A stretch of 64,000 bases of DNA. Source: an uncultured bacterium. Lineage in GTDB: Bacteria; Krumholzibacteriota; Krumholzibacteriia; LZORAL124-64-63. Of the stretch, positions 28,295 through 49,588 are shown in pieces. Position 1 is the stretch's first letter; the number at the start of each line of letters is the position of its first letter. Where the stretch lies: NCBI GenBank assembly GCA_963732385.1, contig CAVSZB010000008.1:352001-416000 (forward strand), written 5' to 3'. Under the pieces are notes generated by a model that saw only the letters and a list, made by a program, of their open reading frames with translations, had not been told where the DNA came from and did not search any database. A program made the position numbers and the translations under genes.

Positions 28295-28584
28295 CCTATA
28301 TCATCGTGCGCCGCGGTCGGAACTGCAAAGCCGCGCCACGGGCCGCCGCGACGCTCCGCGCTTCATGAACAGAAAAACCAACTTGCCGTGACGGAATCGT
28401 GAAGTATTGGCGCTTCAATCGATTCCGGTCCGGGCCCCCGGCCAAGGGAACGCGTGGTCGGCGTCCGCCGACGTTGTGGACGCCGCGCCCGGACACCACA
28501 AGCCTCCGGAACCGGACTGCGCTTTGGTTTCGGAGTTGGGGCTCGGGGTTGCCGGCGGGGGTGACCCCGAGCTTCTTGCTGTCC

Positions 28585-28600
28585 AGGCATGCCCCCTGCA
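28585..28600 (+). promoter_or_regulatory. Candidate sigma-54 promoter for the pilus operon
   Basis: AGGCATGCCCCCTGCA = GG-N10-GC, ~87 nt upstream of the ATPase ATG; imperfect match. Confidence 0.3.
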
Positions 28601-28686
28601 CCTGCCGCCTTGGGAGAAGCGCTGCTCGGCCCGGTCCGAAACGGACCCGGACGATAGCCCGGCGCGCCTCCCAGGGGGGGGATCGC

Positions 28687-30432
28687 ATGCCGATCGGTGG
28701 CTCGAAGCCCCTCGGGCAGAGACTGCTCGAGCGTGGCCTGATCACGGAAGCCCAACTGCAGCAGGCCCTTGCGCACCAGCGGCTCACCGGGAAGTACCTC
28801 CGCCAGGTGCTTCTCGACGAGCGACTCGTGGACGAGGACGCCTTCCTCAAGTTCTACGAGGAGGACCTCTCCATCCCAGTGGTGGATCTGGCCGACTATG
28901 CCATCGACCGGGAAATTCTTGCCCTCGTGCCAGCCGAGGTTTCCCGCCGTTGTCGCGCGCTGCCGCTGTTCCGGGTCGGCCAGACCCTCACGGTGGCGGT
29001 CGAGGATCCTTTCGACATGCTCGCCCTCGATGAACTGCGGTCGCTGACCGGCTGCGACATCGAAACGTGCGCCTGTCGTCGGCGCGACCTTGACGGCGCG
29101 CTCGCCTCCGCCCACGGCGGCGCCGCCGCGGAGGCCCAGGCGGAGGCGGCGGAAACGCTCGGTCGCGAGCAGGACATCACGGCCTTCGTGCAGGAGGTGC
29201 TCGAGGCAGCCTGCGCGCGCGGCTCCAGCGACATCCACTTCGAGGCCGACGAGACGACGCTGCGCGTGCGCGTGCGGATCGACGGCATCCTGCGCGAACT
29301 GGCGCGCAAACCGGTGGCCATGCACGGCCCCGCCGTCTCGCGCGTGAAGATCCTCTCCGATCTGGACATCGCCGAGAAACGCCTGCCGCAGGACGGCCGG
29401 TTCCAGACCGAACTGCAGGGCCGCCCCTTCGACGTGCGCGTTTCCACCTTCCCCACGATCCACGGCGAATCGGCCGTGCTGCGGCTGCTCGACAAGAAGG
29501 GCGGCCTGATTCCGCTCGATGAGATCGGCATGGCGCCGCGGGAGTACCTGTGGCTGCGGCAGGCCATCCGCAAACCGAACGGGATCCTGCTGGTTACCGG
29601 CCCCACCGGCAGCGGCAAGACCACCACGCTGTACTCCATTCTCAGCGCGATCGCGAACCCCGAGGTCAACATCGCCACGCTCGAGGATCCCGTGGAGTAC
29701 CAGCTGCCGCTGGTGCGTCAGTCGCAGGTGAACGAGGACATCGGCTTCACCTTCGCCTCCGGACTGCGCTCGCTCATGCGCCAGGATCCGGACGTGATCC
29801 TCGTCGGCGAAATTCGCGACCGCGAGTCGGCCGAAATCGCCATCCGCAGCTCCATGACCGGCCACCTCGTCATGTCCACCCTGCACACGAACGACGCCGT
29901 GGGTGCCGTGGCGCGGCTGATGGACATGGAAGTCGATCCGCTGCTGCTGGCCTCATCGCTGCTGGGAGTCATCGGTCAGCGGCTGGTGCGGCGGCTCTGT
30001 CCGCAGTGCCGGACCGCGCTGCCCGAACCGGAGACGAATCCGCACTTCGCCCGGCTGCAGAAAGCCTGGGACGAGATGCGGCGCGGCGCGCAGGGCGAAT
30101 CGCCGCACATCTGCCGGCCGCACGGCTGTCAGCACTGCAGCCAGAACGGGTACCGGGGGCGCGCCGCGATCTACGAGACGCTGGCGGTGAGCGACGAGAT
30201 CGAGGCGGCCATCGGTCGGCGCGCTCCGGCCGCGGAGATCCGCGCGCGCGCGCGCGCCAGCGGCATGACCGATCTCGCCGAAGATGGCTGGCGCAAGGTG
30301 TTGCGCGGCGTGACCTCCATCGAGGAGGTCGTGCGCGTGGCGCGGTTGTCCGAGGAGGACGCGGATGGCGGGATCGACGCGATGCCGGATCAGCTCGCGG
30401 TCGAGACCCTGGGACACAGCCTGATGAAGTGA
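28687..30432 (+). CDS. GspE/PilB/MshE-family secretion/pilus assembly ATPase
   Basis: MshEN-like N-terminus; SDIHFE, RLPQDGRF, Walker A GPTGSGKTTT, EDPVEY, RQDPDVILVGEIRD, TGHLVMSTLHTND, CxxC..CxxC. Confidence 0.95.
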   Translation: MPIGGSKPLGQRLLERGLITEAQLQQALAHQRLTGKYLRQVLLDERLVDEDAFLKFYEEDLSIPVVDLADYAIDREILALVPAEVSRRCRALPLFRVGQTLTVAVEDPFDMLALDELRSLTGCDIETCACRRRDLDGALASAHGGAAAEAQAEAAETLGREQDITAFVQEVLEAACARGSSDIHFEADETTLRVRVRIDGILRELARKPVAMHGPAVSRVKILSDLDIAEKRLPQDGRFQTELQGRPFDVRVSTFPTIHGESAVLRLLDKKGGLIPLDEIGMAPREYLWLRQAIRKPNGILLVTGPTGSGKTTTLYSILSAIANPEVNIATLEDPVEYQLPLVRQSQVNEDIGFTFASGLRSLMRQDPDVILVGEIRDRESAEIAIRSSMTGHLVMSTLHTNDAVGAVARLMDMEVDPLLLASSLLGVIGQRLVRRLCPQCRTALPEPETNPHFARLQKAWDEMRRGAQGESPHICRPHGCQHCSQNGYRGRAAIYETLAVSDEIEAAIGRRAPAAEIRARARASGMTDLAEDGWRKVLRGVTSIEEVVRVARLSEEDADGGIDAMPDQLAVETLGHSLMK

Positions 30433-30442
30433 GGCGCCCGTC

Positions 30443-31657
30443 GTGACGAACTACGCCTATCGCGCCCAGACCGTTGACGCCCGCGTCGTGCGGGGGTTCG
30501 TCGCCGCGCCGGATGCCGGAGCGGCGCTGGCGCAGATGGAGCGGATGCGCCTGCGTCCGATCGAACTGCGTCCCTACCGCGATCCGCCCTGGCGGCGGCT
30601 GGCGGTCCGCCTGCGCCGCGGCGCGCCGGCGGGCGAGAAGCTGCTGCTGTTGCGCCAGCTGCAGACGATGCTCGGCAGCGGAATTCCCCTCGTGCGCGCG
30701 CTGGCGGCGCTCGGCTCCCAGGTCGAAAACGCGCGCGTGCAGGAGATGGTGAACGCCGTCCGCGTCGACGTGGAGGGGGGCTCGACCCTGGCCGAGGCGT
30801 GCGCCCGTCAGCCGGGACTCTTCACGTCGCTGCAGGTGCAGATGGTGCGAGCGGCCGAACAGAGCGGTCTGCTGGAGGAGATGCTCGCCCGCATGGGCGA
30901 TCTGCACGAGAAGGAGATGGAGATCCAGCGCAACGTCCGGTCGGCGCTCTTCTACCCCGGGCTGGTCGTGGGCGAACTGGGACTGGCCATCGGCGTGATC
31001 CTCAAGTTCGTGTTTCCGCGCTTCGTCCAGATCTTCGCCGGCTTCAGCGCCGATCTCCCGGCGCCGACCGTGGCGCTGATCCGTCTCAGCAATGCTTTCG
31101 ATCGCTATGGCTGGCTGCTGCCGCCGCTGGCCGTGGCCATCTTCACGGGCTACCGCCTGGCGCGGCGGCGACCGCTGTTCGCTCTCGCGGCCGACCGGAT
31201 CAAGCTGCGCATCCCGCTGATGGGCCCGGTTTTCCAGAAGATCTACCTCAGCCGTTTCTCGCACCTGCTGGCCAACCTGACGGCCGCCGGCATCCCGCTC
31301 GTTGCCGCGCTGCGCCTGGGGGCCAACACGCTCGATAACACCTGGCTGCGCCGCGACGCGGTGGCCCTGCGCGAAGGGGTGGAGCAGGGCAAATCGATCG
31401 CCACGGCGATGGCGGACCTGGCCGCGTTTCCTCCCGTCTGCCGCGAAATGATCGCCGTTGGCGAGGAGAGCGGGCGGCTGGTGGAGACGCTGCGGCGCGT
31501 GAGCGAGTACTACGACAGGCAGGTCGACTTCGCGATCAAGAACCTGACCGTGGCCATCGAGCCGATCCTGCTGCTGGTGCTGGGCGTGGTCGTCCTCTTC
31601 GTCGCGCTGGCCGTGTTCCTGCCGATGTGGAATCTGATGGGAGCCATCAAGGGATGA
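30443..31657 (+). CDS. GspF/PilC/MshG-family inner-membrane platform protein
   Basis: RQLQTMLGSGIPL, VEGGSTLAEA, AEQSGLL, ALFYP, GEESGRL, IEPILL. Confidence 0.94.
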   Translation: MTNYAYRAQTVDARVVRGFVAAPDAGAALAQMERMRLRPIELRPYRDPPWRRLAVRLRRGAPAGEKLLLLRQLQTMLGSGIPLVRALAALGSQVENARVQEMVNAVRVDVEGGSTLAEACARQPGLFTSLQVQMVRAAEQSGLLEEMLARMGDLHEKEMEIQRNVRSALFYPGLVVGELGLAIGVILKFVFPRFVQIFAGFSADLPAPTVALIRLSNAFDRYGWLLPPLAVAIFTGYRLARRRPLFALAADRIKLRIPLMGPVFQKIYLSRFSHLLANLTAAGIPLVAALRLGANTLDNTWLRRDAVALREGVEQGKSIATAMADLAAFPPVCREMIAVGEESGRLVETLRRVSEYYDRQVDFAIKNLTVAIEPILLLVLGVVVLFVALAVFLPMWNLMGAIKG

Positions 31658-32139
31658 ATCGCCGCGGCTTCACCCTGATCGAACTGGCCATGGTGATCGC
31701 GATCTCGGCGATCCTCGCGGTCGTGTCCTATCCCACGCTGCGCGATCTGGGCAACTTCGGAGTGGCGGCGGCGGCGCGCGGTCTCGTCGCCGACATCCAC
31801 TTCGTCAAGAACCGGGCCATCACCACGCACACGGTCTGCGGCGTGGAGTTCAGCGCCTCCGGCGACACCTACACGCTCTTCACCGGCACGCCCGTCACGC
31901 CGTTGCAGCATCCGTTGCGTCCGGGGCAGGACTACCGCGTGAATCTCGGCGCGCAGGGCGTCGATCTGGTCGCCGCCAGTTTCGGTGGCGGAGCGCAGGT
32001 GCGCTTCGACGCTCTTGGCCAGCCGCTCGACGCATCCGATCAGCCGTTCCTGGCGCAGGGACGGGCGATCCTGGCCCGCGGCGCCGTGCGCGACACGGTG
32101 AGCGTCGACGCCTTCACCGGGGGGGTGCAGGGGCCGTGA
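31654..32139 (+). CDS. Minor pilin/pseudopilin (GspH/FimT/MshC-like)
   Basis: Prepilin cleavage site RRG|FTLIEL; ATGA overlap with the upstream gene. Confidence 0.85.
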   Translation: MNRRGFTLIELAMVIAISAILAVVSYPTLRDLGNFGVAAAARGLVADIHFVKNRAITTHTVCGVEFSASGDTYTLFTGTPVTPLQHPLRPGQDYRVNLGAQGVDLVAASFGGGAQVRFDALGQPLDASDQPFLAQGRAILARGAVRDTVSVDAFTGGVQGP

Positions 32140-32540
32140 GCGGATGGAGCGACCGGCGGGGCGCCTCGATGTTCGAACTGGTGATGGTGATCCTGCTGGT
32201 GGGGGTCGGGATCGTGCCGATCCTCGCCATGTTCCGCGAGGCGGCGCGTCAGGCGCCGGTGTCGGAGCTGCAGACGCGCGCCGCGCTGCTCGCGGCCGAG
32301 CGGATGGAGGAACTGGTGCGCGATCGCATGGATCCGGGGCGTGGCTACGACTGGATCGTCGCGGCGAACTATCCCGCCGATGTTGCCATCGCCGGTTTCC
32401 CCGGCTTCACGCGCACGACGACGATCGAGTCCGACACCACGATCAGCGGCGCCCCGATCCGCCGCGTGCGCGTCACGGTGGCCAAAGCTGGCGCGGCCGC
32501 GGTGGACCTGCGGACCTGGTTCGCGGAGGTGGCGCCGTGA
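32136..32540 (+). CDS. Minor pilin (PilV/GspI/MshD-like)
   Basis: RRG|ASMFEL plus hydrophobic helix; A..LAAERMEE; RVRVTV. Confidence 0.8.
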   Translation: MSGWSDRRGASMFELVMVILLVGVGIVPILAMFREAARQAPVSELQTRAALLAAERMEELVRDRMDPGRGYDWIVAANYPADVAIAGFPGFTRTTTIESDTTISGAPIRRVRVTVAKAGAAAVDLRTWFAEVAP

Positions 32541-33070
32541 TGCCTCGCTCCAGCCGGCCGGGACGCGCGGGCGTGACCCTCGTGGAGCTGGTCATCTCCA
32601 TCGTGCTGGTGACGATCGTGTCGGGCATGCTGGCGGTCACGCTGCGCGAGGGGTTCGCGGTGTACGCGGCGGCGCAGGGGCGCAAATCGGCCCTGCAGGA
32701 GGGGCGCGCCGTGCTGCTGCGCGCCGAGCGGGAGGTGCGTCAGATTCGCGACCGGGGGGCCCTGCTGGCCGCCGGGCCGAGCCTGGTGACGCTGCGCACC
32801 GTGGCCGACTCGACGGTGGGGTTGAGCTGGGCCGGCTCGCCGGGGGCGCCGCTGCTCTACGCGCGCAACGGACGGTCCTATGTATTTTGCTCCGGCGTTG
32901 ACTCGTTCGCGCTCGCCTACACGCAGGGCGACGGCAGTGCGGCGGCGCCTCTGGTGGCGCCCGACAGCACGGATGTCCGCTACCTGACCCTCTACCTGCG
33001 TTTGTCGCGCGGCGGCCAGAAGGTGGCGCTGCGCGAGGGGATCATGTTGCGCAACCTGCGGGGGAGCTGA
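32540..33070 (+). CDS. Minor pilin (PilW/GspJ/MshO-like)
   Basis: RAG|VTLVEL; R..REVRQ motif; TGATG overlap; GGAGG RBS. Confidence 0.8.
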   Translation: MPRSSRPGRAGVTLVELVISIVLVTIVSGMLAVTLREGFAVYAAAQGRKSALQEGRAVLLRAEREVRQIRDRGALLAAGPSLVTLRTVADSTVGLSWAGSPGAPLLYARNGRSYVFCSGVDSFALAYTQGDGSAAAPLVAPDSTDVRYLTLYLRLSRGGQKVALREGIMLRNLRGS

Positions 33071-33071
33071 C

Positions 33072-33443
33072 ATGCGGCGCGAGGGGAGTTCGGTCGTGGC
33101 GGCCGTGATGGTGCTGCTCGTGCTGTCGTCGCTCGGGCTGCTCCTGTCGGCCCAGGTTGCCGGCGACCAGCTCGTGGCGGCGAACCAGATCGAGGCGGCG
33201 CGCGCTTTCTATGCGGCCGAAGCGGGCCTCGAACTTGCAACCCGCTGCCTGGAAGACAGTCCCGCCTGGAGCGGCGTGCCGGCGCCGGGGCTGTCGGTGG
33301 GTCCGGCGCGGTTCACGGTAACGATTTCCGACAGTTCCGCGGCGGGGACCCCGCTGGCGAGTGGCCAGAAAAGGATCACCGCCAAGGGTGTTTCTGGCCA
33401 GGCGGAACGGCGTTTGACCCTGTTGGCGCAGTTCGGCGGTTGA
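33072..33443 (+). CDS. PilX/GspK/MshP-like minor pilin
   Basis: REG|SSVVAA (no Glu5, as in the K/X class); RAFYAAEAGLE motif. Confidence 0.8.
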   Translation: MRREGSSVVAAVMVLLVLSSLGLLLSAQVAGDQLVAANQIEAARAFYAAEAGLELATRCLEDSPAWSGVPAPGLSVGPARFTVTISDSSAAGTPLASGQKRITAKGVSGQAERRLTLLAQFGG

Positions 33444-33453
33444 GAGGGGGGGC

Positions 33454-35274
33454 ATGAAGGGGCAGCGGACAGTATCGGTGGGCCCGCGCACGCTGCGCGG
33501 TCGCAACGACCGCGTGACGGCGCTGCTCTGCGGGCACGACCGGCTGGGCGTGGCGGCGGTCCAGGCGACCCGCGGCCGTCCGCGGCTGGAAAGCCTGGAA
33601 CTGATCCCCCTGACCGCCGACCTGCTCGCAGCGCACGGCTCACCGCTCGGCTGCTGTCGCGCGTTGTTGCCGGAGCTCGTCGTTCGGCACGGCCTGCACG
33701 GGCAGCGCGCCGTGGTCGTGGTGGAATCGGCCCGTACGGCCGCCCGCTTCTGGGCCGCCCCGGACCTGCCGGAACGGGATCGTCTCGGCGCGCTCGGCTT
33801 CGAGGCGGAGAAATGGTGCCAGGCTCCCGCGGCCGGCCTGTGGCTCGGCTGTCTTGACGCGGCCCCCCCGACGGTCAGCGGGATTGAAGGCGCACATTCG
33901 GGCGTCGGCGCCTACGCGACGGAAGAGGGAGTGCTCGCGGTCGCCACGCCCCTGGATGGCGTGGCGCCGCTGTTGCGCGCGGTGGCGGAGGCGGGACTCG
34001 AACCGTGGGGCGTGACCGTGCCCCCGCTCGCGCTCGAGAGCCTGCTCATCGACGATTCCACCATCGACTCCGTCGCTACCTCGGCTGCCGTGCACATCGG
34101 TGCGCAGCGCAGCTGGCTGACGGTCTGCGCGCGCGGACGGCTGCTCATGGTGCGCGAGCTGGAGGTGGCGCGTGATGGTTTCGCCTCCGCGCTGGCGATA
34201 ATCCCGGTCGAGGGACGGGGCAGCGTGCGGTTGACCTCGGATGAGGCCGCCGACCTGCTGGCGAGCGTCGGCTGGGTAGTGGATGACGAGCCGTTCGGCA
34301 TGGCCAACGAGCAGATTCCCATGGAAGCCGTAAAATTCGCCCTGCGTCCGGTGCTGGAGCGTCTGGCCTCGTCGATCAGCCGCTCGCTCGACTTCTGCCG
34401 CGAGCAGTACTTCGTGGAGATCCCCGAGACGATCGCGTTGACCGGCGAGGGGGCGAACGTGCCGCATCTCGACACTTATCTCGGCGCGAACCTGCTCACC
34501 CGCTTCGTGTGCGGCGTCGCCTGGGAAGGGCGTCTCGACGTGGGCGGCGAAAGCGCCGAGTGCTGGTCGCGCGCGCCCGAGCTGGCTTGCGTGGTGGCCG
34601 GCGCCGCCCTGGGCGGCCTGCGCGGGCGGGTCCTGCCGGCACGGGCCGGGGCGCTCGGTCTGCCCCGCTGGTTCACGCTGCCGGTGCGGCGGATTCTGGC
34701 CGGCGCCGCCGTGGTCCTCGCGCTCGCCTGTCTGGTGACGGAAGGGCAGGCGATGCGCCTGCGGGCGCGGGCCGCGACGGACAGCGCCAGGGTGGCGGAA
34801 CTGGAGGCGCGTCTGGACGCCGCGCGGCGCGACTGGCGCGTTTCTGAGGCGGGCCGGGCGGAGCGGCAGCTGGTCGAGATCTTCGCGCGCGGCAACGTCC
34901 GCGCCGACGGTATCCTCAAGACCCTCAGCCGGGCCGTGGGATCGGAAGTGACGCTCACCGAACTGAGCCTGCCCAGCCTGAACGGCGGGCTGCTCGATCT
35001 CGTCGCCGCGCCCGCGGTGACCACGCCCGGCGGGGATCTGCCGCAGGAACGCGACATGTTGACGCTCAGCGGCGTGGTGCGCACGGATCGCGATCGCCTC
35101 GAGACCGTCCTGTCGCGGCTCATCGTCGCGCTCCAGAACGGACCGTATTTCCAGAACGTGACCTTCGTGCGGAGCGAGGAGGAGGAGCCGGGCACCGCCT
35201 CCTTCCAGCTGCGCTGCCGAATCCGCCAGGGTCTGCGTCCCGGGGCCGGGGAACGGGTGGTGGCGAATCGATGA
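33454..35274 (+). CDS. PilM-PilN-like fusion (alignment complex)
   Basis: Actin-like PilM features (VHIGAQRS, ISRSLDF, IALTGEGA..PHL), a TM helix, then a PilN-like region (VTLTELS, LTLSG, PYFQNV, FQLRC). Confidence 0.75.
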   Translation: MKGQRTVSVGPRTLRGRNDRVTALLCGHDRLGVAAVQATRGRPRLESLELIPLTADLLAAHGSPLGCCRALLPELVVRHGLHGQRAVVVVESARTAARFWAAPDLPERDRLGALGFEAEKWCQAPAAGLWLGCLDAAPPTVSGIEGAHSGVGAYATEEGVLAVATPLDGVAPLLRAVAEAGLEPWGVTVPPLALESLLIDDSTIDSVATSAAVHIGAQRSWLTVCARGRLLMVRELEVARDGFASALAIIPVEGRGSVRLTSDEAADLLASVGWVVDDEPFGMANEQIPMEAVKFALRPVLERLASSISRSLDFCREQYFVEIPETIALTGEGANVPHLDTYLGANLLTRFVCGVAWEGRLDVGGESAECWSRAPELACVVAGAALGGLRGRVLPARAGALGLPRWFTLPVRRILAGAAVVLALACLVTEGQAMRLRARAATDSARVAELEARLDAARRDWRVSEAGRAERQLVEIFARGNVRADGILKTLSRAVGSEVTLTELSLPSLNGGLLDLVAAPAVTTPGGDLPQERDMLTLSGVVRTDRDRLETVLSRLIVALQNGPYFQNVTFVRSEEEEPGTASFQLRCRIRQGLRPGAGERVVANR

Positions 35275-35903
35275 TCGTGAACCTGCGGTGGCGTAATACG
35301 CGCGTTGAACTTCTGCTGCTGGCGGGCGGGTCCGTGACGCTGCTCCTGGCCGGTGCGCTGTTGCTCGCGCCGCGTGTCCGGACCACGGCGCGGCTCACCC
35401 GTGAGGTGGCGGTCGCGACGGAACGGACGCAGCGGCTGCAGCGCGAACTTGCCCCCTACCTGCCTTTGCTGGCCAGCGCGGCCCAGCCCGGCCCCGCGCG
35501 CGTCTTCGGCGCCGCGTCGGCGGAAACCGCCATTCCCGGCCTGCTGGATCGTCTCGCCGCGCTCGGGCGCGACTGTGCGCTCACCGTGACCGCGATGTCG
35601 CCCGAGACCTCCGCTCCTCAGCCCCTGCCGGCGTCGTCCGACGGCGCGACAATGGCGGGGGCGGAAGAGCCGCGCTGTTTTCGGGTGCTGACGGTGGATG
35701 TGGAGGCGGAGGCCGATTTCGCCGGTCTGGGGCGCTATCTGGAGGCGCTGTCCGGACTCGACATTCCGCTGGCCGTGCTGGCCCTGAAGATCGAACCGGC
35801 GGGTCGCGGCGGCCTGGAGCGGGTTGTGGCGCGGTTCACGCTCGGCACCTGGGTTCTCGAGGATCCGGCCGGCGGGGAAAAGAGGCGCGATGAAGCTGCG
35901 TAG
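35271..35903 (+). CDS. PilO/GspM-like protein
   Basis: Single TM, coiled coil, ferredoxin-like end (VDVEAEADFAGLGRYLEAL); operon position. Confidence 0.7.
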   Translation: MIVNLRWRNTRVELLLLAGGSVTLLLAGALLLAPRVRTTARLTREVAVATERTQRLQRELAPYLPLLASAAQPGPARVFGAASAETAIPGLLDRLAALGRDCALTVTAMSPETSAPQPLPASSDGATMAGAEEPRCFRVLTVDVEAEADFAGLGRYLEALSGLDIPLAVLALKIEPAGRGGLERVVARFTLGTWVLEDPAGGEKRRDEAA

Positions 35904-36423
35904 GCGCGAGGCGGTCTGGCTTTTGGTGCTGGGTGGACTGCTGCTGGTCGTGCGGGGGATGGATTCACGCACGGCGTCGCTGCGCCGGAGCGCAAGCGCT
36001 GACGTGAAGAGCGCTGCCGAGACCGCCGCGCCGCCAACGGCAACGGCCCTGCCTGCCGCGCCGGGCGGCGGCTACCCCGGCGCCCTGATCTCGACGGCGG
36101 ACCTCGCGACGATGGCCTGGGGCCCCAACCCGTTTCGCAGCAGCGACTCGAGACGCGTCGAGGCGGCCCTGACCGACCGCTCCGCAATGGAAAGGCCCGC
36201 CGCTTCCGCCACGCCTGCCGGGTCGCGGGTGCCGCGCTTCCAGGGCCTGGTGACGGTGAAGGGCCGGACGCTGGCCGCGCTCGACGGGAAGTTTTTCGCC
36301 CCGGGCGAGCGGATCGGCGGCTGGCTGGTACAGGAAATCAGTCCCGGCGGAGTGACCGTGCGCCAGGTGCGCACCGGGGAAGTGCGGCGGTTGAGCCGTG
36401 AACGGACGGCATTGGCGCCCTGA
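35890..36423 (+). CDS. PilP/GspC/MshK-like accessory protein
   Basis: N-terminal TM, WGPNPF, FQGLV...AALDG...GERIGGW.V.EI....V.V; lies directly before the secretin. Confidence 0.65.
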   Translation: MKLRRREAVWLLVLGGLLLVVRGMDSRTASLRRSASADVKSAAETAAPPTATALPAAPGGGYPGALISTADLATMAWGPNPFRSSDSRRVEAALTDRSAMERPAASATPAGSRVPRFQGLVTVKGRTLAALDGKFFAPGERIGGWLVQEISPGGVTVRQVRTGEVRRLSRERTALAP

Positions 36424-36448
36424 CGCGCGGAGCCATGAGGGGGATGGG

Positions 36449-37885
36449 ATGAGAACGAGACTTTGCCTGCTGCTGGCGATGGCGTGCACGATGGCTTTCG
36501 CCGTGGCGGTCTCCGCTCGCGATGCGGACCCGGACGATCTGTCGCCGACGGCGATGCCGGCCGCTGCCCCGGCCGCTGGCCTGAAGGTCGCCATGGCGGC
36601 AGCGCAGCCGGCGGCGCCGGACGCCGTCGCGGCGTCCCTGTCCGCGCGCCCGTCCACGTTGAGCCTGGCGCTTGATGACATGCCCCTGCGTGCGGTTCTG
36701 CAGGGCCTGGCGGAGCAGGCGGGGCGCAGCCTCGTCATCGGACCCGAGGTGCAGGGCGAGGTCTCCGCCACGCTCAGCAACGTCACCTTCGAGGAGGCTC
36801 TGCGCGCGATCCTCGCCACCACGCCGTATGGCTACAGCCTGCGGGACGACGTGTGGTCGATCGGCACGCTGGCGATCGAGACCCGGGTCTTCAGCCTGAC
36901 GTACGTCGGGGGCGACGCGGTCAAGGAGGCGCTCACGCCGTTCCTTTCCGAGAAGGGACGGGTCGAGGCTTTGACCGCTCTCAACAACGGCGACATCGCG
37001 GGGACGCCGTCGAAGTCGAAGCTCGTGGTCACCGATATCCCGGATCGACTCGACCGCATCGAAGCGGTCATCCGCAGCCTCGATGTGCGGCCGCGGCAGG
37101 TGCGCATCGAGGCGCGCATGGTCGAGACCACCGTCGGGCACGACGCGTCCCTCGGCATCAAATGGAGCCTCGACGTCTCGGCGCGCGGCGGCGCGGCGCC
37201 CACCACGTTCCCGTTCCGCCACGACGGGGCGCCCGTCTCCGACTACGCAGCGACCGGCGACTCCGAGAGCGGTGGCACCGACCTTGGCGGTCGTCAGTTC
37301 CTGCCCGGCGAGTTCTTCCCCGCGCCCCAGCGCACGGATTTCGTGTTCGGCATCATGGACGCCAGCCAGCTCGGCGTGGCGGTACAGGCGCTGGAGAACG
37401 ACGTCAACGCGAACGTCCTGGCCACGCCGACGATCACCACCACCGATGGTCGGAAGGCGCAGGTGCTGGTCGGCCAGCAGATTCCGGTGCCGATCTACGA
37501 ACGGCAGCAGGAGACCGGCGTGCTCGAGATCACCGGCTACCAGCAGCAGGAGGTCGGCATCTCGCTGGATGTGACGCCCCACGTCGGACGCGACGGCGAG
37601 ATACTCATGGAGGTCACCCCCTCTACCAGCGACATCGTGGAGTTCATCGGCGAGTTCAAGGACCGTCCGATCACCAAGACACGGGTGGCGCGGACCCAGG
37701 TGGTCGTGCGCGAGGGGCAGACCCTGGCGATCGCCGGCCTGCTGTCGGAATCGGAATTCACGACGCATTCCAAGGTGCCTTTGCTGGGCGATATCCCGCT
37801 GCTCGGTCACCTCTTCCGTCACAGCGGGACCGAGAAGCGCAAAGTCGAGCTGCTGATCTTCATCACTCCGACCCTGCTGGACTGA
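36449..37885 (+). CDS. Secretin (PilQ/GspD/MshL family)
   Basis: Signal peptide; STN/N domains; QVRIEARMVE, ANVLATPTITT, VGISLDVTPHV, KVPLLGDIPLLGHLF, ELLIFITP. Confidence 0.94.
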   Translation: MRTRLCLLLAMACTMAFAVAVSARDADPDDLSPTAMPAAAPAAGLKVAMAAAQPAAPDAVAASLSARPSTLSLALDDMPLRAVLQGLAEQAGRSLVIGPEVQGEVSATLSNVTFEEALRAILATTPYGYSLRDDVWSIGTLAIETRVFSLTYVGGDAVKEALTPFLSEKGRVEALTALNNGDIAGTPSKSKLVVTDIPDRLDRIEAVIRSLDVRPRQVRIEARMVETTVGHDASLGIKWSLDVSARGGAAPTTFPFRHDGAPVSDYAATGDSESGGTDLGGRQFLPGEFFPAPQRTDFVFGIMDASQLGVAVQALENDVNANVLATPTITTTDGRKAQVLVGQQIPVPIYERQQETGVLEITGYQQQEVGISLDVTPHVGRDGEILMEVTPSTSDIVEFIGEFKDRPITKTRVARTQVVVREGQTLAIAGLLSESEFTTHSKVPLLGDIPLLGHLFRHSGTEKRKVELLIFITPTLLD

Positions 37886-37980
37886 AAATGCCGGCTCAAG
37901 CGGACGGATTGCAGGACGATAGTTGGACCGGACAGTTCACCAGGACTACGCGGCAGGCCGCGCGAATCCGCGGGAAGGTA

Positions 37981-38364
37981 ATGATGGCCCGGAAAATTCT
38001 CGTCGTCGACGACCAGGAAAACATCGCGCGCATCGTGCGCATGATGCTCGAGAACAAGGGCTACGCGACCATCTGGGCGGCCGATGGCGCCGAGGCGCTG
38101 CGTCTGGCGAAGACCGAGGAGCCGGACCTTATCCTGCTCGATGTCATGCTGCCGAAGATCGATGGTTTCAAGGTTTGCCGTCTTCTGAAGTTCGACAAGA
38201 AGTACAGCCATATCCCGATTGTTCTTCTCACCGCCAAATCGTCTCCCGGTGACAAGCAGACAGGCCGTGAGGTGGGGGCGGATTACTACCTGGAAAAGCC
38301 GTTCCAGCCGGTGCAGCTGATTCAGGTCATCGAGCAATTGCTCTCGTTGGAGGGAGTACAATGA
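37981..38364 (+). CDS. Single-domain response regulator (REC only)
   Basis: ILVVDD, DLILLDVMLPKIDG, LLTA, GADYYLEKPF; no output domain. Confidence 0.9.
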   Translation: MMARKILVVDDQENIARIVRMMLENKGYATIWAADGAEALRLAKTEEPDLILLDVMLPKIDGFKVCRLLKFDKKYSHIPIVLLTAKSSPGDKQTGREVGADYYLEKPFQPVQLIQVIEQLLSLEGVQ

Positions 38365-38738
38365 AGCGCATCGATCGTCAGGGTTTCACGCTCATCGAAC
38401 TGGTCATCGTGATCGTGATTCTCGGGATCCTGGCCACGGTTGCCATTCCGAAGTACGTGGACATGCAGACCGAAGCCCGGGAAGCGGCCGTACGAGGGGC
38501 GCTGGGCAACATTCGCGCGGCGCTGGCCATCGAGTACGCGCGCGCGGCGGTGACCACCGGCACGGCGGCGTTCCCGGCGACGCTGACAGGGGCGCTGTTC
38601 GCCGTCGGCACGGTTCCGCAGGATCCGGTGACGAATCTCCAGAAGGTCGTCACCACGTACGACGGCACGGGCGGGTGGGTCTACACCGCCGCCTCCGGTT
38701 CCGTCACCTGCAATGTGGCCGGCTACTCGACCTACTGA
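38361..38738 (+). CDS. Probable major pilin/pseudopilin (MshA/GspG-like)
   Basis: RQG|FTLIELVIVIVILGILATVAIPKY; VPQDP and GGWVY motifs; GGAG RBS. Confidence 0.88.
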   Translation: MKRIDRQGFTLIELVIVIVILGILATVAIPKYVDMQTEAREAAVRGALGNIRAALAIEYARAAVTTGTAAFPATLTGALFAVGTVPQDPVTNLQKVVTTYDGTGGWVYTAASGSVTCNVAGYSTY

Positions 38739-43031: not shown

Positions 43032-43068
43032 ACAGGCGCCTCCGTCGCGGACGGGGGCGCCTGTTTTT
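43032..43068 (+). terminator. Rho-independent terminator
   Basis: ACAGGCGCCTCCGTC-GCG-GACGGGGGCGCCTGT followed by a T-run. Confidence 0.8.
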
Positions 43069-43171: not shown

Positions 43172-43927
43172 ATGCGTCGTCCCGCCCCTCTTCGCAACCC
43201 ATGGCTCCTGGTCGCCCTGGCGGCGGCTTGTGCCCTGGCCACGGGGGCCCGGGCCGGCACACTTTCGGCGACCTCCGGCGCCGGGACGCTCGACAGCTGT
43301 TCTCCGGTCGTCGTGATCGAAGCCCCGGCCGGAGGTGAGGCCTTCACGGCGGCTGCCGTGGAGACCCTGCGCTGGCGCATCGTGGAGGATCTGTACGCCG
43401 CGGGCAGTCGTCCGGTGCGCGTCGAGTTGTGGGACGAGGCGGCCGTGGTCTGGGCCGACAGTGTGACGGCCCCGGTCGACGGCGCCGGCCAGCTGGCCTG
43501 GACCGTGCCTGATCTGCAGCTGCCGCGGGCGCGGCTGATCATCAGCGCGGTGGACGCTTTCGGTTTCGTCGGCGCTGACACCAGCGCCGTGTTCGCGGTG
43601 CACAACAGCCTGACTGACGTGCACGGCGCCAAGCCGCCCGCGCGCGACCTGCTCGCTCCGAACGTGCCCAACCCCTTCAATCCGCGCACAACGCTGCGGT
43701 TCGAATTGACCGCGGACGCGACGGTCGAACTGGCGGTCTTCGACGTGTCAGGTCGGCGAATCGCCACGCTCGCCTCCGGACACCGGGCTGCCGGACGCCA
43801 TGAGGCCGTGTGGCAGGGACGCGATGATGATGGTCGGTCGGTGCCGAGCGGCGTCTATCTCGCGCGTCTGCGCGTGGACGGTTCCCAGCGCGGTAACTAC
43901 GCCGTGCGCATGACCATGCTCAAATAG
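43172..43927 (+). CDS. Small secreted protein: one Ig-like domain plus FlgD-Ig (T9SS-like) C-terminal domain
   Basis: Signal peptide ending ARA|G; PVVVIEAPAGGE Ig domain; NVPNPFNPRT...VFDVSGRRIATL...WQGRDDDGRSVPSGVY...RMTMLK. Confidence 0.82.
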   Translation: MRRPAPLRNPWLLVALAAACALATGARAGTLSATSGAGTLDSCSPVVVIEAPAGGEAFTAAAVETLRWRIVEDLYAAGSRPVRVELWDEAAVVWADSVTAPVDGAGQLAWTVPDLQLPRARLIISAVDAFGFVGADTSAVFAVHNSLTDVHGAKPPARDLLAPNVPNPFNPRTTLRFELTADATVELAVFDVSGRRIATLASGHRAAGRHEAVWQGRDDDGRSVPSGVYLARLRVDGSQRGNYAVRMTMLK

Positions 43928-45997
43928 ATGGAGCGTCGCATGCCGTTCGATCCTCGCGTCCTCCGCCGTCGTGTCGCCTGCGTCCTGGCCGGTGTCGTCC
44001 TGGCCGGCGGCCTCGCCGGCGCCGACCGCCCCGGGCCGGACAGCGCCGCTGCCCTGCGCACTCTCGCGGCCGGCCTGGCGGCACGCCAGGAGGCATTCCG
44101 GACGCCGCTCTACCGCGAATTGCTCGCCGCCACCGACGGCCCCCAGGGGCGCCTCAACGCGGATCCGTCCCTGCGCCTGATGGGCGTGGATGAACGCGGG
44201 CGGCCCCGTTTCTACCAGACCCACAATCTGAACGCCGCGCGCACGCTCCAGGTGGACCGGCTCTGGCCGGGCGGCGCGAGCGGTCTCGCCCTTACCGGCG
44301 CCAACACCCCGGGGCAGCTGGCCCTCTGGGACGGGGGCGGGGTGCTGGTCGGGCATCAGGAGTTCGGCGGGCGGGTCGTGCAGATGGACAGTCCGTCGGT
44401 CACGAACTTCCACTCCACGCACGTGGCCGGCACGCTCGTGGCGGCGGGGGTCAATCCACTGGCGCGCGGCATGTCGCCCGGCGCTTCACTGCAGGCGTGG
44501 GAGTGGACTGACGACGAGGCGGAAATGGCCGCCGCCGCCGCCGTCGGCCTGCTGGTTTCCAATCACAGCTACGGCTTCGTGGCCGGCTGGTACCGCGACC
44601 CCAGCGGCGCCTACTACTGGTACGGCGACGTGACGGTCGATCCCGACGAGGACCCCGGTTTCGGTTTCTACGGTGACGACGCCCAGGCGTGGGACCAGAT
44701 CGCGGTGGCGGCCCCGCATTATCTCATGGTGATGTCGGCGGGCAATGACCGTGACGACACCGGTCCCGCGGCCGGGGTCACCTATTCCTACTGGAACCCC
44801 GCCACCGGCAGTTGGGCCCAATCCACGGTGCCGCGGGCAGCCGACGGCGGCGCCACCGGTTTCGACACGCTGCCGTATCGCGCGGTCTGCAAGAACGGGC
44901 TGACCATCGGGGCGGTTGCCGATATTCCCGCCGGCTATGTCGTTCCCACCGATGTGATCATGACCGCGTTCAGCGGCTGGGGCCCGAGCGACGACGGGCG
45001 CATCAAGCCCGATCTGGTGGCCAACGGTGTCGGCCTCACCAGCGCTGTCAACACCTCGAACTCGTCCTACGGCAACTACAGTGGTACGTCGATGGCCTCG
45101 CCCAACGCAGCCGGCGCGCTGCACCTGCTCGCCCGGCTATGGCAGGAGAGGCACGCGGGCGCCCCGGCGCGCGCCGCCACGCTCAAGGCGATCGCGATCC
45201 ACACGGCCGACGAGGCCGGCCCGGCCGCCGGCCCCGACTACATGTTCGGCTGGGGCCTGCTGAACGTACGAGCGGCGGCCGAACTGATCGTCGACACGAC
45301 CGCCGACTCGCTGCGGGTCCTGCAACGGGTGCTGGCCGACGGCGCTTGCGACACGCTGCTGCTGCAGACCGCCGGAGCCGGGCCGCTCGTGGCCACGCTT
45401 TCCTGGACCGACCCCGCCGCCACGCCGCCGGCCTGGTCGCTCGATCCCCCCGCCCCGCTGCTCCGACACGACCTCGACCTGCGACTCGAACCGGTAGCGG
45501 GCGGCGCACCGACCCTGCCGTACGTCCTCGATCCCGCCCACCCCGCGGTGCCTGCCGTTCAGGGCGACAACGTCCGCGACAATGTCGAACAGCTCCGTCT
45601 CTCCGCTCCGCCGGTCGACATCTGGCGCATCATCGTTTCTCACAAGGGGCACCTCGACGCGCCGCAGGCGTGGTCGCTCGTGCTGTCGGGCTTCGCGCCC
45701 ATACCGGAGCCGAGTGTCGACAACGTGAGCTTCGCCCAGCGACGCGACGGCAGCGGCCTCGTCGACATCACCTACGATCTGACGGCCCCCGCGGGCTCTG
45801 CCGTGACCGTCACCCTCGCGGCCTCCGCTGATGGTGGCGCCACCTGGGACCTCGACGTGTCGGCCGCGCAGGGGGACGTCGGAGTGGGGGTGGCTCCAGG
45901 TGCCGGAAGGCGGATCGTGTGGAACTTCGCCGCGGCGAACCCGGGGCGTTTCGGCACGGACTTCCGCGTGCGAATCTCGGCCGTCATCGTACCCTGA
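43928..45997 (+). CDS. S8 (subtilisin-like) serine peptidase with a C-terminal Ig-like domain
   Basis: Triad motifs LALWDGG, HSTHVAGT, SGTSMASP; SAGND; DGRIKPDLVANG; signal peptide; alternative start 43940. Confidence 0.92.
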   Translation: MERRMPFDPRVLRRRVACVLAGVVLAGGLAGADRPGPDSAAALRTLAAGLAARQEAFRTPLYRELLAATDGPQGRLNADPSLRLMGVDERGRPRFYQTHNLNAARTLQVDRLWPGGASGLALTGANTPGQLALWDGGGVLVGHQEFGGRVVQMDSPSVTNFHSTHVAGTLVAAGVNPLARGMSPGASLQAWEWTDDEAEMAAAAAVGLLVSNHSYGFVAGWYRDPSGAYYWYGDVTVDPDEDPGFGFYGDDAQAWDQIAVAAPHYLMVMSAGNDRDDTGPAAGVTYSYWNPATGSWAQSTVPRAADGGATGFDTLPYRAVCKNGLTIGAVADIPAGYVVPTDVIMTAFSGWGPSDDGRIKPDLVANGVGLTSAVNTSNSSYGNYSGTSMASPNAAGALHLLARLWQERHAGAPARAATLKAIAIHTADEAGPAAGPDYMFGWGLLNVRAAAELIVDTTADSLRVLQRVLADGACDTLLLQTAGAGPLVATLSWTDPAATPPAWSLDPPAPLLRHDLDLRLEPVAGGAPTLPYVLDPAHPAVPAVQGDNVRDNVEQLRLSAPPVDIWRIIVSHKGHLDAPQAWSLVLSGFAPIPEPSVDNVSFAQRRDGSGLVDITYDLTAPAGSAVTVTLAASADGGATWDLDVSAAQGDVGVGVAPGAGRRIVWNFAAANPGRFGTDFRVRISAVIVP

Positions 45998-46169: not shown

Positions 46170-47713
46170 ATGGCGGTCAGGCGACGTTTCGAGGATCTCG
46201 ACGCGCGGCGCGCGGAGCTCCAGTCCGGCGGTGGGGCGGAGAAGATCGGGCGCCAGCACGAGCAGGGGAAACTGACGGCGCGCGAGCGTCTGGGTGTGCT
46301 GTTCGACGAGGACACTTTCGTCGAGTTCGGTCTCTGGGTGAAGCACCGTTGTCCCGATCTGGCCGGCCGGGAATTCCCCGCCGATGGCGTGGTGACCGGC
46401 AAGGGCGAGGTCATGGGGCGGCCCGTGTTCGCCTTCTCGCAGGACTTCACCGTGGGCGGCGGCGCGGTCGGCGAGCAGCACGCGGCGAAGATCGTCGAGA
46501 TGCTCGCCACGGCGCTCAAGTGCGGCGTGCCCGTGGTCGGCTTCAACGACGGTGGCGGGGCGCGGATCCAGGAGGGCGTCAACGCACTCTCCGCCTACGG
46601 GAAGATCTTCTACCACAACATGCTCATCTCGGGCGTGGTGCCGCAGATCTCGGTGGTCGCCGGGCCGTGCGCCGGCGGTGCCGCCTACTCGCCGGCCCTG
46701 ACCGACTTCATCATCATGGTCGAGCGCACGGCGCACATGTTCATCGCCGGGCCCGAGGTGATCCGCGCCGCCACGGGCGAGGTCATCAGCGAGGAGGATC
46801 TCGGCGGCGCGCGCGCGCATGCGGCCATCGCCGGCAACATTCACTTCACGGCGGCGGACGAAGAGGAGGCGGTGGCGATCGTGAAGGCGCTGCTGGGCTA
46901 CCTGCCGCAGAACAACATGGAGACGCCGCCCTCGCGCCCGTTCGACGGCACCGTGGTGGACGACGAGGCCCTGGACTGGATCATTCCCGAGGATCCTCGC
47001 GCGCGCCTACGATGTGAAGGAGGTCATCACCCGCCTGGTGGACGACGGCGTGTTCCTCGAGGTTCAGAAGGACTTCGCGGCGAACCTGGTGGTCGGTTTC
47101 GCCCACCTCGGCGGGCTCGCCGTCGGCATCGTCGCCAATCAGCCGCAGGTGATGGCCGGCGTGCTCGACATCAACGCCGCCGACAAGGGGGCGCGGTTCA
47201 TCCGCACCTGCAACATCTACAACATCCCGCTGATCACGCTCGTGGACGTGCCGGGGTTCCTGCCCGGCGTCGCGCAGGAGCACGGCGGCATCATCCGCCA
47301 CGGCGCGAAGATGCTCTTCTCCTATTCGGCGGCGACGGTGCCGAAGCTGACCGTCATCCTGCGCAAGGCCTACGGCGGCGCCTTCCTGGCCATGTGCTCC
47401 AAGGACGTGGGCGCGGAGAGCGTGCTGGCCTGGCCGACCGCCGAGATCGCGGTCATGGGGCCGGAGGGGGCGGCGCGGGTGCTCTATCGCAAGGAGATCA
47501 GGGAGGCGGCGGATCCCGCCGCGCTGCTCCAGGAGAAGATCGCCGAGTACCGTGCAGCAGCACGCCAATCCGTTCCACGCGGCGGAGGCGCTGCACATCG
47601 ACGACATCATCCGCCCCTCGTGGACCCGGCGCCTGCTGATCGAGCGCCTGGGTCTGCTGCGCACCAAGCGCGACCTGCGTCCGCAGAAGAAGCACGGGAA
47701 CATACCGCTATGA
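46170..47713 (+). CDS. mmdA: Acyl-CoA carboxyltransferase / methylmalonyl-CoA decarboxylase alpha subunit (+1 frameshifts near 47005 and 47553)
   Basis: [60 protein letters not shown]; restored C-terminus [17 protein letters not shown]. Confidence 0.85.
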
Positions 47714-48026
47714 TGGCTCAACAATCGATCCTGGCTCGTCGCTCTGTCAGCCTTCGCGCTCGTTATTCGCGGCGTTGGGCCTGCTGGCGCTGCTGCTGTT
47801 CGCCCTGCGCGCGCTGGCCGTGCGCACGGCGCGCAGCGCGACTGCGGTGCCGGACGCCGAGTTCGATCCGGAAATTCTCGCGGTTCTGGCCGCCGCCGCC
47901 TACGCGGTGCTCGGCGCGCCGGTCCGCATCCACCGCGTCCACGTCCACGGCGAACCGGCCGGCCAGGCCTGGGAGCGCGCGGGACGCATGGACATCATGG
48001 TCTCCCACCGGGTGGGTCCGAAATGA
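47710..48026 (+). CDS. Decarboxylase membrane anchor subunit (OadG/MmdD-like; two apparent +1 frameshifts near 47731 and 47765)
   Basis: Restored N-terminal [12 protein letters not shown] and AWERAGR motifs; lies between alpha and the biotin carrier. Confidence 0.7.
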
Positions 48027-48466
48027 AGAAACTGCGCCTGACGATGAACGGGAAGATCTACGAGGTGACGGTGGAAGTGCTCGAGGACGACGAGCAGTAT
48101 GTCACCGGCGCCAACCTGCCCTCGTCCCTGCCGACGGCGCCGGGCCGCTCGCGCGGGCGGAAGACCGAGCAGGCAGCCGAGCCGGCGCCGACCGGCTCGG
48201 TCGCCAGGCGCCGCGCGCCCGCCGGTGCGCCAGCCGGCATCGATCCCAACAACATCCTGGCGCCGATCGCCGGCACCGTGCAGAAGGTGTTCGTGCAGAC
48301 GGGTGCCACGGTCGAGGAGAAGACCCCGGTCATCATGCTCGACGCCATGAAGATGGACACCTACATCTACGCTCCGCGCAGCGGACTCGTGGCGGAGGTC
48401 TGCGTGGCGCCCGGCGACACCGTGCAGGTCGGCACGGTGCTGATCCGTTACCGGACGGAGGGCTGA
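48023..48466 (+). CDS. mmdC: Biotin carboxyl carrier subunit of the decarboxylase
   Basis: [17 protein letters not shown], Pro/Ala linker, APIAGTV, LDAMKM biotinylation site, GDTVQVG. Confidence 0.88.
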
Positions 48467-48467
48467 C

Positions 48468-49588
48468 GTGGAAGTCCTCTGGACCTCGACCGGGCTGGCG
48501 CACATCACCTGGCGCGAACTGGTGATGCTGGGCGTGGCCTGCGTGCTGCTCTGGCTCGCCATCCAGGCGTAGGTTCGAGCCGCTGTTGCTGGTGCCGATC
48601 GGCTTCGGCGCGCTGATGGCCAACCTGCCGCTTGCCGGACTGATGAGCCCCGGCGGTCCCGGCGAGCCGGGCGGCCTCTTCCACTACCTGTTCGCCGGGG
48701 TCAGGCTGGAGATCTTCCCGCCGCTCATCTTCCTCGGACTCGGGGCGCTGACCGACTTCGGCCCTTTGCTGTCGAATCCGAAGACGTTCTTCCTCGGGGC
48801 CGCGGCGCAGCTCGGTGTGTTCGGCACCTTCCTGGCGGCCCATGCGCATGGGCTTCACGCCGCAGGAGGCCGCTTCGATCGGCATCATCGGCGGCGCCGA
48901 CGGGCCGACCTCCATCTACCTGACGATGAAGCTGGCGCCGCACCTGCTCGGGGCGATCGCCGTCTCGGCGTATTCGTACATGGCGCTGGTGCCGCTCATC
49001 CAGCCGCCGATCATGCGGCTGCTGACGACGAAGCGGGAACGCGCGATCCGCATGGAGAGCAATTTCGAAGTGCCGCGCTGGATCCGGATCATCTTCCCGA
49101 TCGGCGTTACGATCGTCGGTGCGCTGATCGTGCCGGCGGCGACAAGTCTCATCGGTCTGCTCATGTTCGGCAATCTGCTGCGCGAGTGCGGCGTGACCGA
49201 GCGGTTGACCCGCTCCGCGCAGAACGAGCTGATCAACCTGATCACGATCGTCCTCGGGCTATGCGTGGGCGTGACGATGGATGGCGAGAGCTTCCTGCGG
49301 ACCGAGACCCTGAAGATCCTCGTGCTCGGTTGCGTGGCGTTTTCGCTGTCCACGGCGGGCGGGGTCCTGCTTGGCAAGCTGATGGCGCGCCTGCCGGGCA
49401 GCCCGGTCAATCCGCTCATCGGCGCTGCGGGGGTGTCGGCGGTGCCGATGGCGGCCCGGGTGGCGCACAACGTGGCGCAGGAGACCGATCCCAACAACTA
49501 CCTGCTCATGCACGCGATGGGGCCTAACGTGGCCGGGGTGATCGGCTCGGCAGTGGCGGCGGGAGGGCTGCTCGCGCTCCTGAAGTAG
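48468..49588 (+). CDS. mmdB: Na+-translocating decarboxylase beta subunit (OadB/MmdB; +1 frameshifts at ~48564 and ~48841)
   Basis: [79 protein letters not shown]. Confidence 0.88.

Follow-up and report, generated by a model that had tools for sequence, protein, structure and literature searches.

A secreted S8 protease lacking a sorting domain is predicted to be clipped to a sortable adaptor by donor-strand complementation in a Krumholzibacteriota genome

We analysed a stretch of 64,000 nucleotides (the window) from an uncultured bacterium of the Krumholzibacteriota, in which an S8 protease without a C-terminal sorting domain (CTD) is encoded directly downstream of a small CTD-bearing adaptor. 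Structure prediction indicates that the two proteins form a heterodimer by strand complementation, and we regard this pairing as very likely. A protein is identified as T9SS cargo by the CTD that it carries. In the full model, which we consider probable, the adaptor clips the tagless protease by a strand, carries it through the T9SS and tethers it to the cell surface. The features of the locus are as follows.

43032..43064, + strand: terminator-like hairpin and T tail, between the upstream ABC-permease gene and the pair
43172..43927, + strand: adaptor gene, 251 aa, no catalytic domain (sequence and domain searches)
43172..43255, + strand: adaptor signal peptide, ending in A-R-A (sequence)
43256..43297, + strand: putative donor strand of 14 aa, GTLSATSGAGTLDS, corresponding to strand G of the acceptor domain (model, profiles and covariation)
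43304..43612, + strand: complete Ig-like spacer domain of the adaptor, missing from minimal adaptors
43649..43924, + strand: FlgD_ig / T9SS type-A-like CTD of the adaptor (Pfam, NCBIfam)
43928..45997, + strand: S8 protease gene (689 aa) that encodes a signal peptide but no CTD
44402..45256, + strand: Peptidase_S8 catalytic domain, protease residues 159-443 (Pfam)
45707..45994, + strand: acceptor domain, an FN3-like sandwich with strands A-F and without G (AF2 and fold comparison)

An earlier sequence-only reading had described two abutting genes and an adaptor composed of a signal peptide, a 14-aa extension, one Ig-like domain and a CTD, with no catalytic domain. The coordinates and domain searches agree with this description: the adaptor stop codon TAG abuts the protease start codon ATG (43927/43928), and the CTD matched PF13860 above its cut-off (E 4e-11) and TIGR04183 at 22.4 bits against a cut-off of 23. 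The protease matched PF00082 (E 5e-25), shows the WDGG, HSTHV and GTSMAS catalytic motifs (Asp/His/Ser) and ends in ...RVRISAVIVP. No CTD match was found in it with Pfam or NCBIfam, whereas the same libraries place a CTD on both trypsin-like proteases of the window (58772-63855, tandem and near-identical), as had also been noted. The same adaptor lies directly upstream in 19 of 20 S8 orthologues, the 20th beginning at a contig end, and the terminal domain of the protease is 72% identical to that of a Ca. Krumholzibacteriia relative.

As read from the sequence, the pair is flanked by ABC transporter genes and a carboxyltransferase. The upstream hairpin has a 15-pair stem, and two such sites were found against a shuffle mean of 1.5, so that the terminator is weak by count alone. 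A search for sigma-70 promoters of the pair found none on the + strand. In two RNA runs of one study, contigs of relatives with about 90% identity cover both genes and none of those listed spans the junction, which gives no evidence on transcription of the pair. Downstream, the carboxyltransferase, biotin carrier and decarboxylase beta-like genes at 46170-49588 are apparently broken across frames, by frameshifts or sequencing errors. Positions 28399-38738 of the window contain a cluster like those for type IV pili or type II secretion, with a T2SSE ATPase and with PilM/PilN-like, secretin-like and pilin-like genes.

The last 96 residues of the protease form an FN3-like sandwich without strand G, and no Pfam or NCBIfam family matched this acceptor domain above cut-off. 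A profile of 50 rows matched 6,977 cluster representatives at E<=0.001, cis and trans forms taken together, and tandem-repeat giants account for most of the best 150 of these 6,977 matches. Among tandem-repeat relatives with at least three copies, 224 of 320 domains continue after a V.A.D turn into a cis strand (consensus QGSYVESSNFTVDT / xGxxxxSxxFxVDT). This strand is 14 residues long in full-length relatives, and the mature N-terminus of the adaptor matches it in register. No such motif occurred within 28 residues of the 119 distinct acceptor domains of the window's phylum, which stop or run into another domain, and a CTD-like match was found for one of the 119. The sequence-only reading had called the terminal domain incomplete, taking the adaptor's own Ig domain as the template. 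The incompleteness stands, since the strand of full-length relatives is absent; the template does not. Homology between the acceptor and the adaptor's Ig domain is not supported (hhalign probability 15%), so that this part of the earlier argument is analogy; the template for the missing strand is the full-length form of the acceptor's own family. Full-length copies of the acceptor domain also occur in tandem in a Patescibacteria stop-to-stop frame of 1983 aa (L011:3060-9011).

We compared AF2 models of the truncated domain and of a natural full-length repeat from the Patescibacteria frame. The truncated domain alone gave a pLDDT of 96.4 and six main strands, the last at residues 87-94; the full-length repeat gave 96.6 and an extra terminal strand reaching residue 110. 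On fibronectin (3t1w), the truncated model aligned with residues 1174-1253 (Z 6.5, rmsd 2.8, 80 aligned) and the full form with 1174-1270 (Z 8.8, rmsd 2.9, 95 aligned), and on gp130 the alignments covered 104-187 and 104-208, respectively. On the same FN3-type chains the truncated model thus ends 13-21 residues earlier, and chains at Z>=8 numbered 0 for the truncated model versus 56 for the full form. The full-length relative reached Z values of up to 9.4 (rmsd 2.6-2.7, 96-104 aligned), which corresponds to a seven-strand FN3/Ig-like sandwich; this is a common fold, and the match implies no function. Foldseek returned no match for the acceptor at E<=0.001, and its best match in the ESM Atlas (0.84) fell in unnamed clusters.

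In the adaptors, an A-x-A site lies 11 residues before the [LI]D motif, which is the register of the cis strand, and this site is conserved in relatives. A signal-peptidase pattern, which is loose and had no control, was found on 35 of 37 and 42 of 46 partners. We built a donor profile from 254 cis strands only and scored it on the N-termini of the upstream partners. The median score was 7.1 for the first loci (n=37) and 8.3 for held-out loci (n=46), compared with -1.9 for a control of 82 further CTD proteins from this genome, and 22 of 37 and 34 of 46 partners exceeded the 95th percentile of this control. With a strict strand profile that fixes Phe10, the strand of the window ranked 2nd of 85.

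The predicted complex of the adaptor and the acceptor scored 0.82/0.80/0.82 against 0.01 for the best control; of 157 solved pairs 116 reached the score mark, as did 2 of 215 mismatched ones, counts that are roughly applicable with the alignments used. The runs share at least 96% of contacts, with a partner pLDDT of at least 86. Adaptor residues 1-15 face acceptor strands A, B and F, and the donor strand is modelled between A and F and antiparallel to F (contacts 86-12, 89-6 and 90-5). Halves of a split domain can pass complex prediction by fold likeness; solved sequence relatives of the acceptor were limited to Asp-box motif matches. The earlier proposal that the extension completes the protease domain in trans is supported by this model, by the register of the cis strand and by covariation, and an inserted N-terminal strand scoring well above controls is what it had anticipated.

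The covariation concerns a knob-into-hole contact. Position 9 of the acceptor and position 10 of the strand exchange bulk in 68 of 77 pairs: an aromatic residue at 9 goes with a small residue at 10 in 33 of 33 pairs, and a non-aromatic residue at 9 with a large residue at 10 in 35 of 44. Ten pairs were dropped from this set, and related genomes inflate the counts. The two positions are the top APC-MI pair, and the same swap holds in cis domains (4 of 5 with aromatic 9 and 136 of 139 with non-aromatic 9). The pair of this window has Phe9 and Gly10. The rule for picking strands favours Ser7 and Asp/Asn13, so that conservation there is not evidence; the rule does not look at position 10.

The acceptor domain is present in 62 of 181 genomes of the window's phylum. 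The sequence-only reading raised the question of whether CTD-less carriers of the domain sit next to such adaptors, and they do: a CTD gene lies directly upstream of 39 of the 46 acceptor ORFs that made up the first set, and of 47 of the 76 from a held-out set (all strong new matches but one), although every count given here draws on genomes that are kin to one another, so that the cases are not independent. Acceptors without an adjacent CTD gene numbered 7 of 46 and 29 of 76, and 14 of these belong to the GHL15 group, the putative adaptors of which are unlinked. Of the 29 held-out cases, 12 lie in one array, 10 belong to the GHL15 group, 3 are second genes that follow a donor, 2 are at contig edges and 2 fall in none of these classes. 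In hand counts over the family, 43 of 51 genomes that have an acceptor also have a full-length Ig-type adaptor, versus 5 of 27 that have no acceptor, and of 11 genomes in which GHL15 acceptors are unlinked, 10 have an unlinked adaptor. Conversely, no acceptor was found within the 2.6-7.2 kb around each of 20 unlinked adaptors (0/20). Two genomes (G150 and G026, both 96% complete) have an adaptor and gave no acceptor with the profile or with P0017, and another (G186) has 7 acceptors with no neighbour scoring above 4.9. These orphans, together with an array served by one donor, indicate that pairing is not always local or one to one.

The acceptor sits at one end or the other of cargoes that have S8, S8 plus GDSL, GHL15, FGE-sulfatase, GH32-like or FG-GAP domains, among others. 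A link to diversity-generating retroelements was considered for the FGE cargoes and rejected, no RVT_1 being found in the genome. The adaptors take three forms: strand, Ig and CTD together; a minimal form of about 135 aa with strand and CTD only; and large CTD proteins with the strand at their start. The genome of the window holds three intact acceptor-adaptor pairs. In one locus (L010), inspection by eye located a strand-like motif in cis after an FGE-type domain, which suggests that an insertion into the F-G loop preceded fission. A full-length domain split at this loop is the likely origin of the module, which serves many cargoes.

Several loci depart from the simple pair. At L089/L090 (G062:C247:101400-124536), 13 acceptor genes on both strands lie behind one CTD protein of 1671 aa, which starts with a single donor strand, the only donor visible there. 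Minimal adaptors with two tandem strands occur at L138:4800-7132, where two acceptor genes follow, and at L128:2508-3032. At L119:5079-6389 and L120:4032-5309, close to unlinked GHL15 acceptors, a paralogue resembling GHL15 has a lipoprotein-type signal but no acceptor, which suggests two anchoring modes in this family, lipoprotein-type and acceptor. In the genome of the window, a paralogue of the minimal pair on contig C3 (G000:C7:161455-162780, L017) has its signal peptide and strand fused into acceptor strand B by an apparent deletion of about 500 bases at a 4-base microhomology, which removes the CTD and strand A and is either a natural lesion or an assembly error. Elsewhere on contig C7 (G000:C7:1337489-1339470, - strand), a small CTD protein (about 190 aa, with a short low-complexity N-terminal part) is encoded directly upstream of a CTD-less secreted protein of another family; this is possibly a second, unrelated adaptor-cargo pair.

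Beyond the phylum, 67 of 301 genomes of the Bacteroidales (the order of L009) match the acceptor profile. Several of the best matches adjoin genes that begin with donor-like strands, some in tandem, and a canonical Por_Secre_tail was found in 3 of 4 scanned donors. Many of the weaker matches have no visible donor; adjacent genes passed the donor script in 4 of 16 cases versus 0 of 14 others, with a script that misses donors visible by eye (L221, L222 and L227). Three Bacteroidales donors (L221:1875-6335, L222:2187-6593 and L223:7442-9712) are scaffoldin-like, their signal peptide being followed by three or four strand repeats in tandem. In the Verrucomicrobiota, one donor lies between two acceptors. 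The donor-strand reading is supported, and the system extends beyond the locus described here. The odds lean modestly towards a split-domain tag used across FCB and PVC bacteria, in which an acceptor of about 95 residues on CTD-less enzymes and binders and a 14-residue strand on sortable carriers would permit T9SS export and anchoring in trans, with knob-hole specificity and tandem-strand scaffolds, as an equivalent of cohesin-dockerin.

The export route was considered from the gene content of the genome, in which SprA and five PorV proteins scored over cut-off. A PorU-like sortase reached 416.8 of 420 bits (model positions 5-1077), and its gene adjoins a PorV. Besides acceptor proteins, 94 ORFs of the genome bear a CTD. 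GldN, the one motor component searched for, gave no match in the genome, and the control was also silent. The T9SS is described as moving folded proteins and needing a folded CTD (PMC9251779, in part), and PorU as removing the CTD and attaching anionic LPS (PMC5445135, in part). We infer the following sequence of events. Both proteins have signal peptides and would reach the periplasm by Sec; signal peptidase, acting at the conserved site, would free the 14-residue strand at the N-terminus of the adaptor. The strand is predicted to lie between A and F once inserted, running antiparallel to F and placing Leu12 in the core, and protease Phe9 would fill the space left by strand Gly10, as the model and covariation suggest. 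The folded heterodimer would then be recognised through the adaptor CTD and pass SprA/PorV, so that the protease would be exported piggy-back. By analogy with the T9SS of Bacteroidota, the PorU-like sortase would remove the CTD and anchor the adaptor, leaving the enzyme displayed non-covalently.

An alternative that we think unlikely retains the strand clip as an anchor or stabiliser only: the protease would cross separately, for instance by a type II-like route, or would stay periplasmic and meet the adaptor later. The T2SSE-family ATPase and PilM/PilN-like genes of the window would suit such a route, but the cluster may fit type IV pili equally well. Acceptors also occur in Verrucomicrobiota and other lineages where donor genes have no T9SS CTD match, and in some Bacteroidales donors the C-terminal tail is not a CTD (L224). 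However, both chains enter the same periplasm, the T9SS takes folded cargo (PMC9251779, in part), and a CTD is found on one of 119 acceptor proteins as against the 94 other ORFs of the genome. A still less probable alternative makes the adaptor a transient periplasmic chaperone, the strand of which is later exchanged for that of another surface scaffold, as in pilus donor-strand exchange. Arrays of many acceptors with one donor, tandem Bacteroidales strands and unlinked adaptors would allow promiscuous or exchanged pairing; on the other hand, a recycling chaperone would not need the sorting CTD that the adaptors carry, strand and pocket covary with the adjacent partner, and the cargoes lack a strand with which a chain could grow. 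We give least credence to the strand being a leftover of gene fission beside a stable six-stranded domain in a mere operon, or adding to the edge of a complete domain: AF2 does fold the truncated domain alone with high confidence and acceptors without visible donors exist, but the fixed 14-residue register after the signal-peptidase site, the adaptors of strand and CTD only, the compensatory swap, the modelled contacts with both A and F, and fold alignments that end before G unless the strand is present all argue against it.

Carriage by the adaptor is the reading that we prefer, and the pair is likely a new kind of cargo coupling. In the literature searched, which covered few subscription journals and no supplements, nothing was found that describes strand complementation as a means of clipping cargo without a CTD; co-secretion is mentioned in general terms in the accessible part of PMC10202321. 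If the model is true, CTD-less proteins (S8 proteases, GHL15 and FGE-sulfatase/Fib_succ_major-type domains) are exported by hitchhiking and missed by secretome predictions, and whether SprA passes heterodimers becomes directly testable. The acceptor profile, with its thousands of matched cluster representatives in cis and trans, would also describe a large domain family that has no Pfam entry. A 14-residue strand and a 95-residue catcher with natural specificity variants are a candidate tool for protein assembly.

The predicted arrangement resembles the chaperone-usher pilus, in which an N-terminal extension of one secreted protein completes the incomplete Ig-like fold of another (PMC13721041, in part). 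Chaperone-usher subunits carry both strand and groove; here, in contrast, the adaptor's Ig domain is complete in its last strand and does not match the acceptor, and the protease has no donor-like strand after its domain. Donor and acceptor thus reside on different kinds of protein, which would give a capped heterodimer and no polymer. The pair further differs in its FN3-like fold match, in the T9SS-type CTD on the donor and in having no chaperone or usher gene adjacent to it. It is not a pilus.

The ABM1/ABM2 motifs of gingipains form a split FN3-like domain. In the gingipain proteinase-adhesin complex, a protease is likewise held non-covalently on a T9SS-anchored piece by short motifs, but those pieces come from one precursor cut after export, whereas here the genes are separate (PMC10319874 and PMC5266723, both in part). 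Compared with T9SS type A cargo sorted by PorU (PMC5445135, in part), the adaptor has the expected signal peptide and CTD, and SprA, PorV and a PorU-like protein are encoded in the genome; unlike such cargo, the enzyme is without a CTD; another gene product bears the tag, and this CTD is of the FlgD_ig variant. Cohesin-dockerin systems, among them a CTD-anchored complex that has been inferred for Ca. Stygibacter (PMC8542988, in part), similarly use a portable module to clip varied enzymes, S8 included, to a non-catalytic CTD-anchored protein. They dock by two complete domains, whereas one split domain and a 14-residue strand would serve here, and Pfam gave no dockerin or cohesin match in the adaptor or the protease. 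In Tat and peroxisomal hitchhiker transport, a signal-less partner crosses the membrane bound to a signal-bearing one; as described in part of PMC9251779, those hitchhikers are subunits of fixed enzymes, whereas the adaptor would be a dedicated, reusable carrier at the outer membrane.
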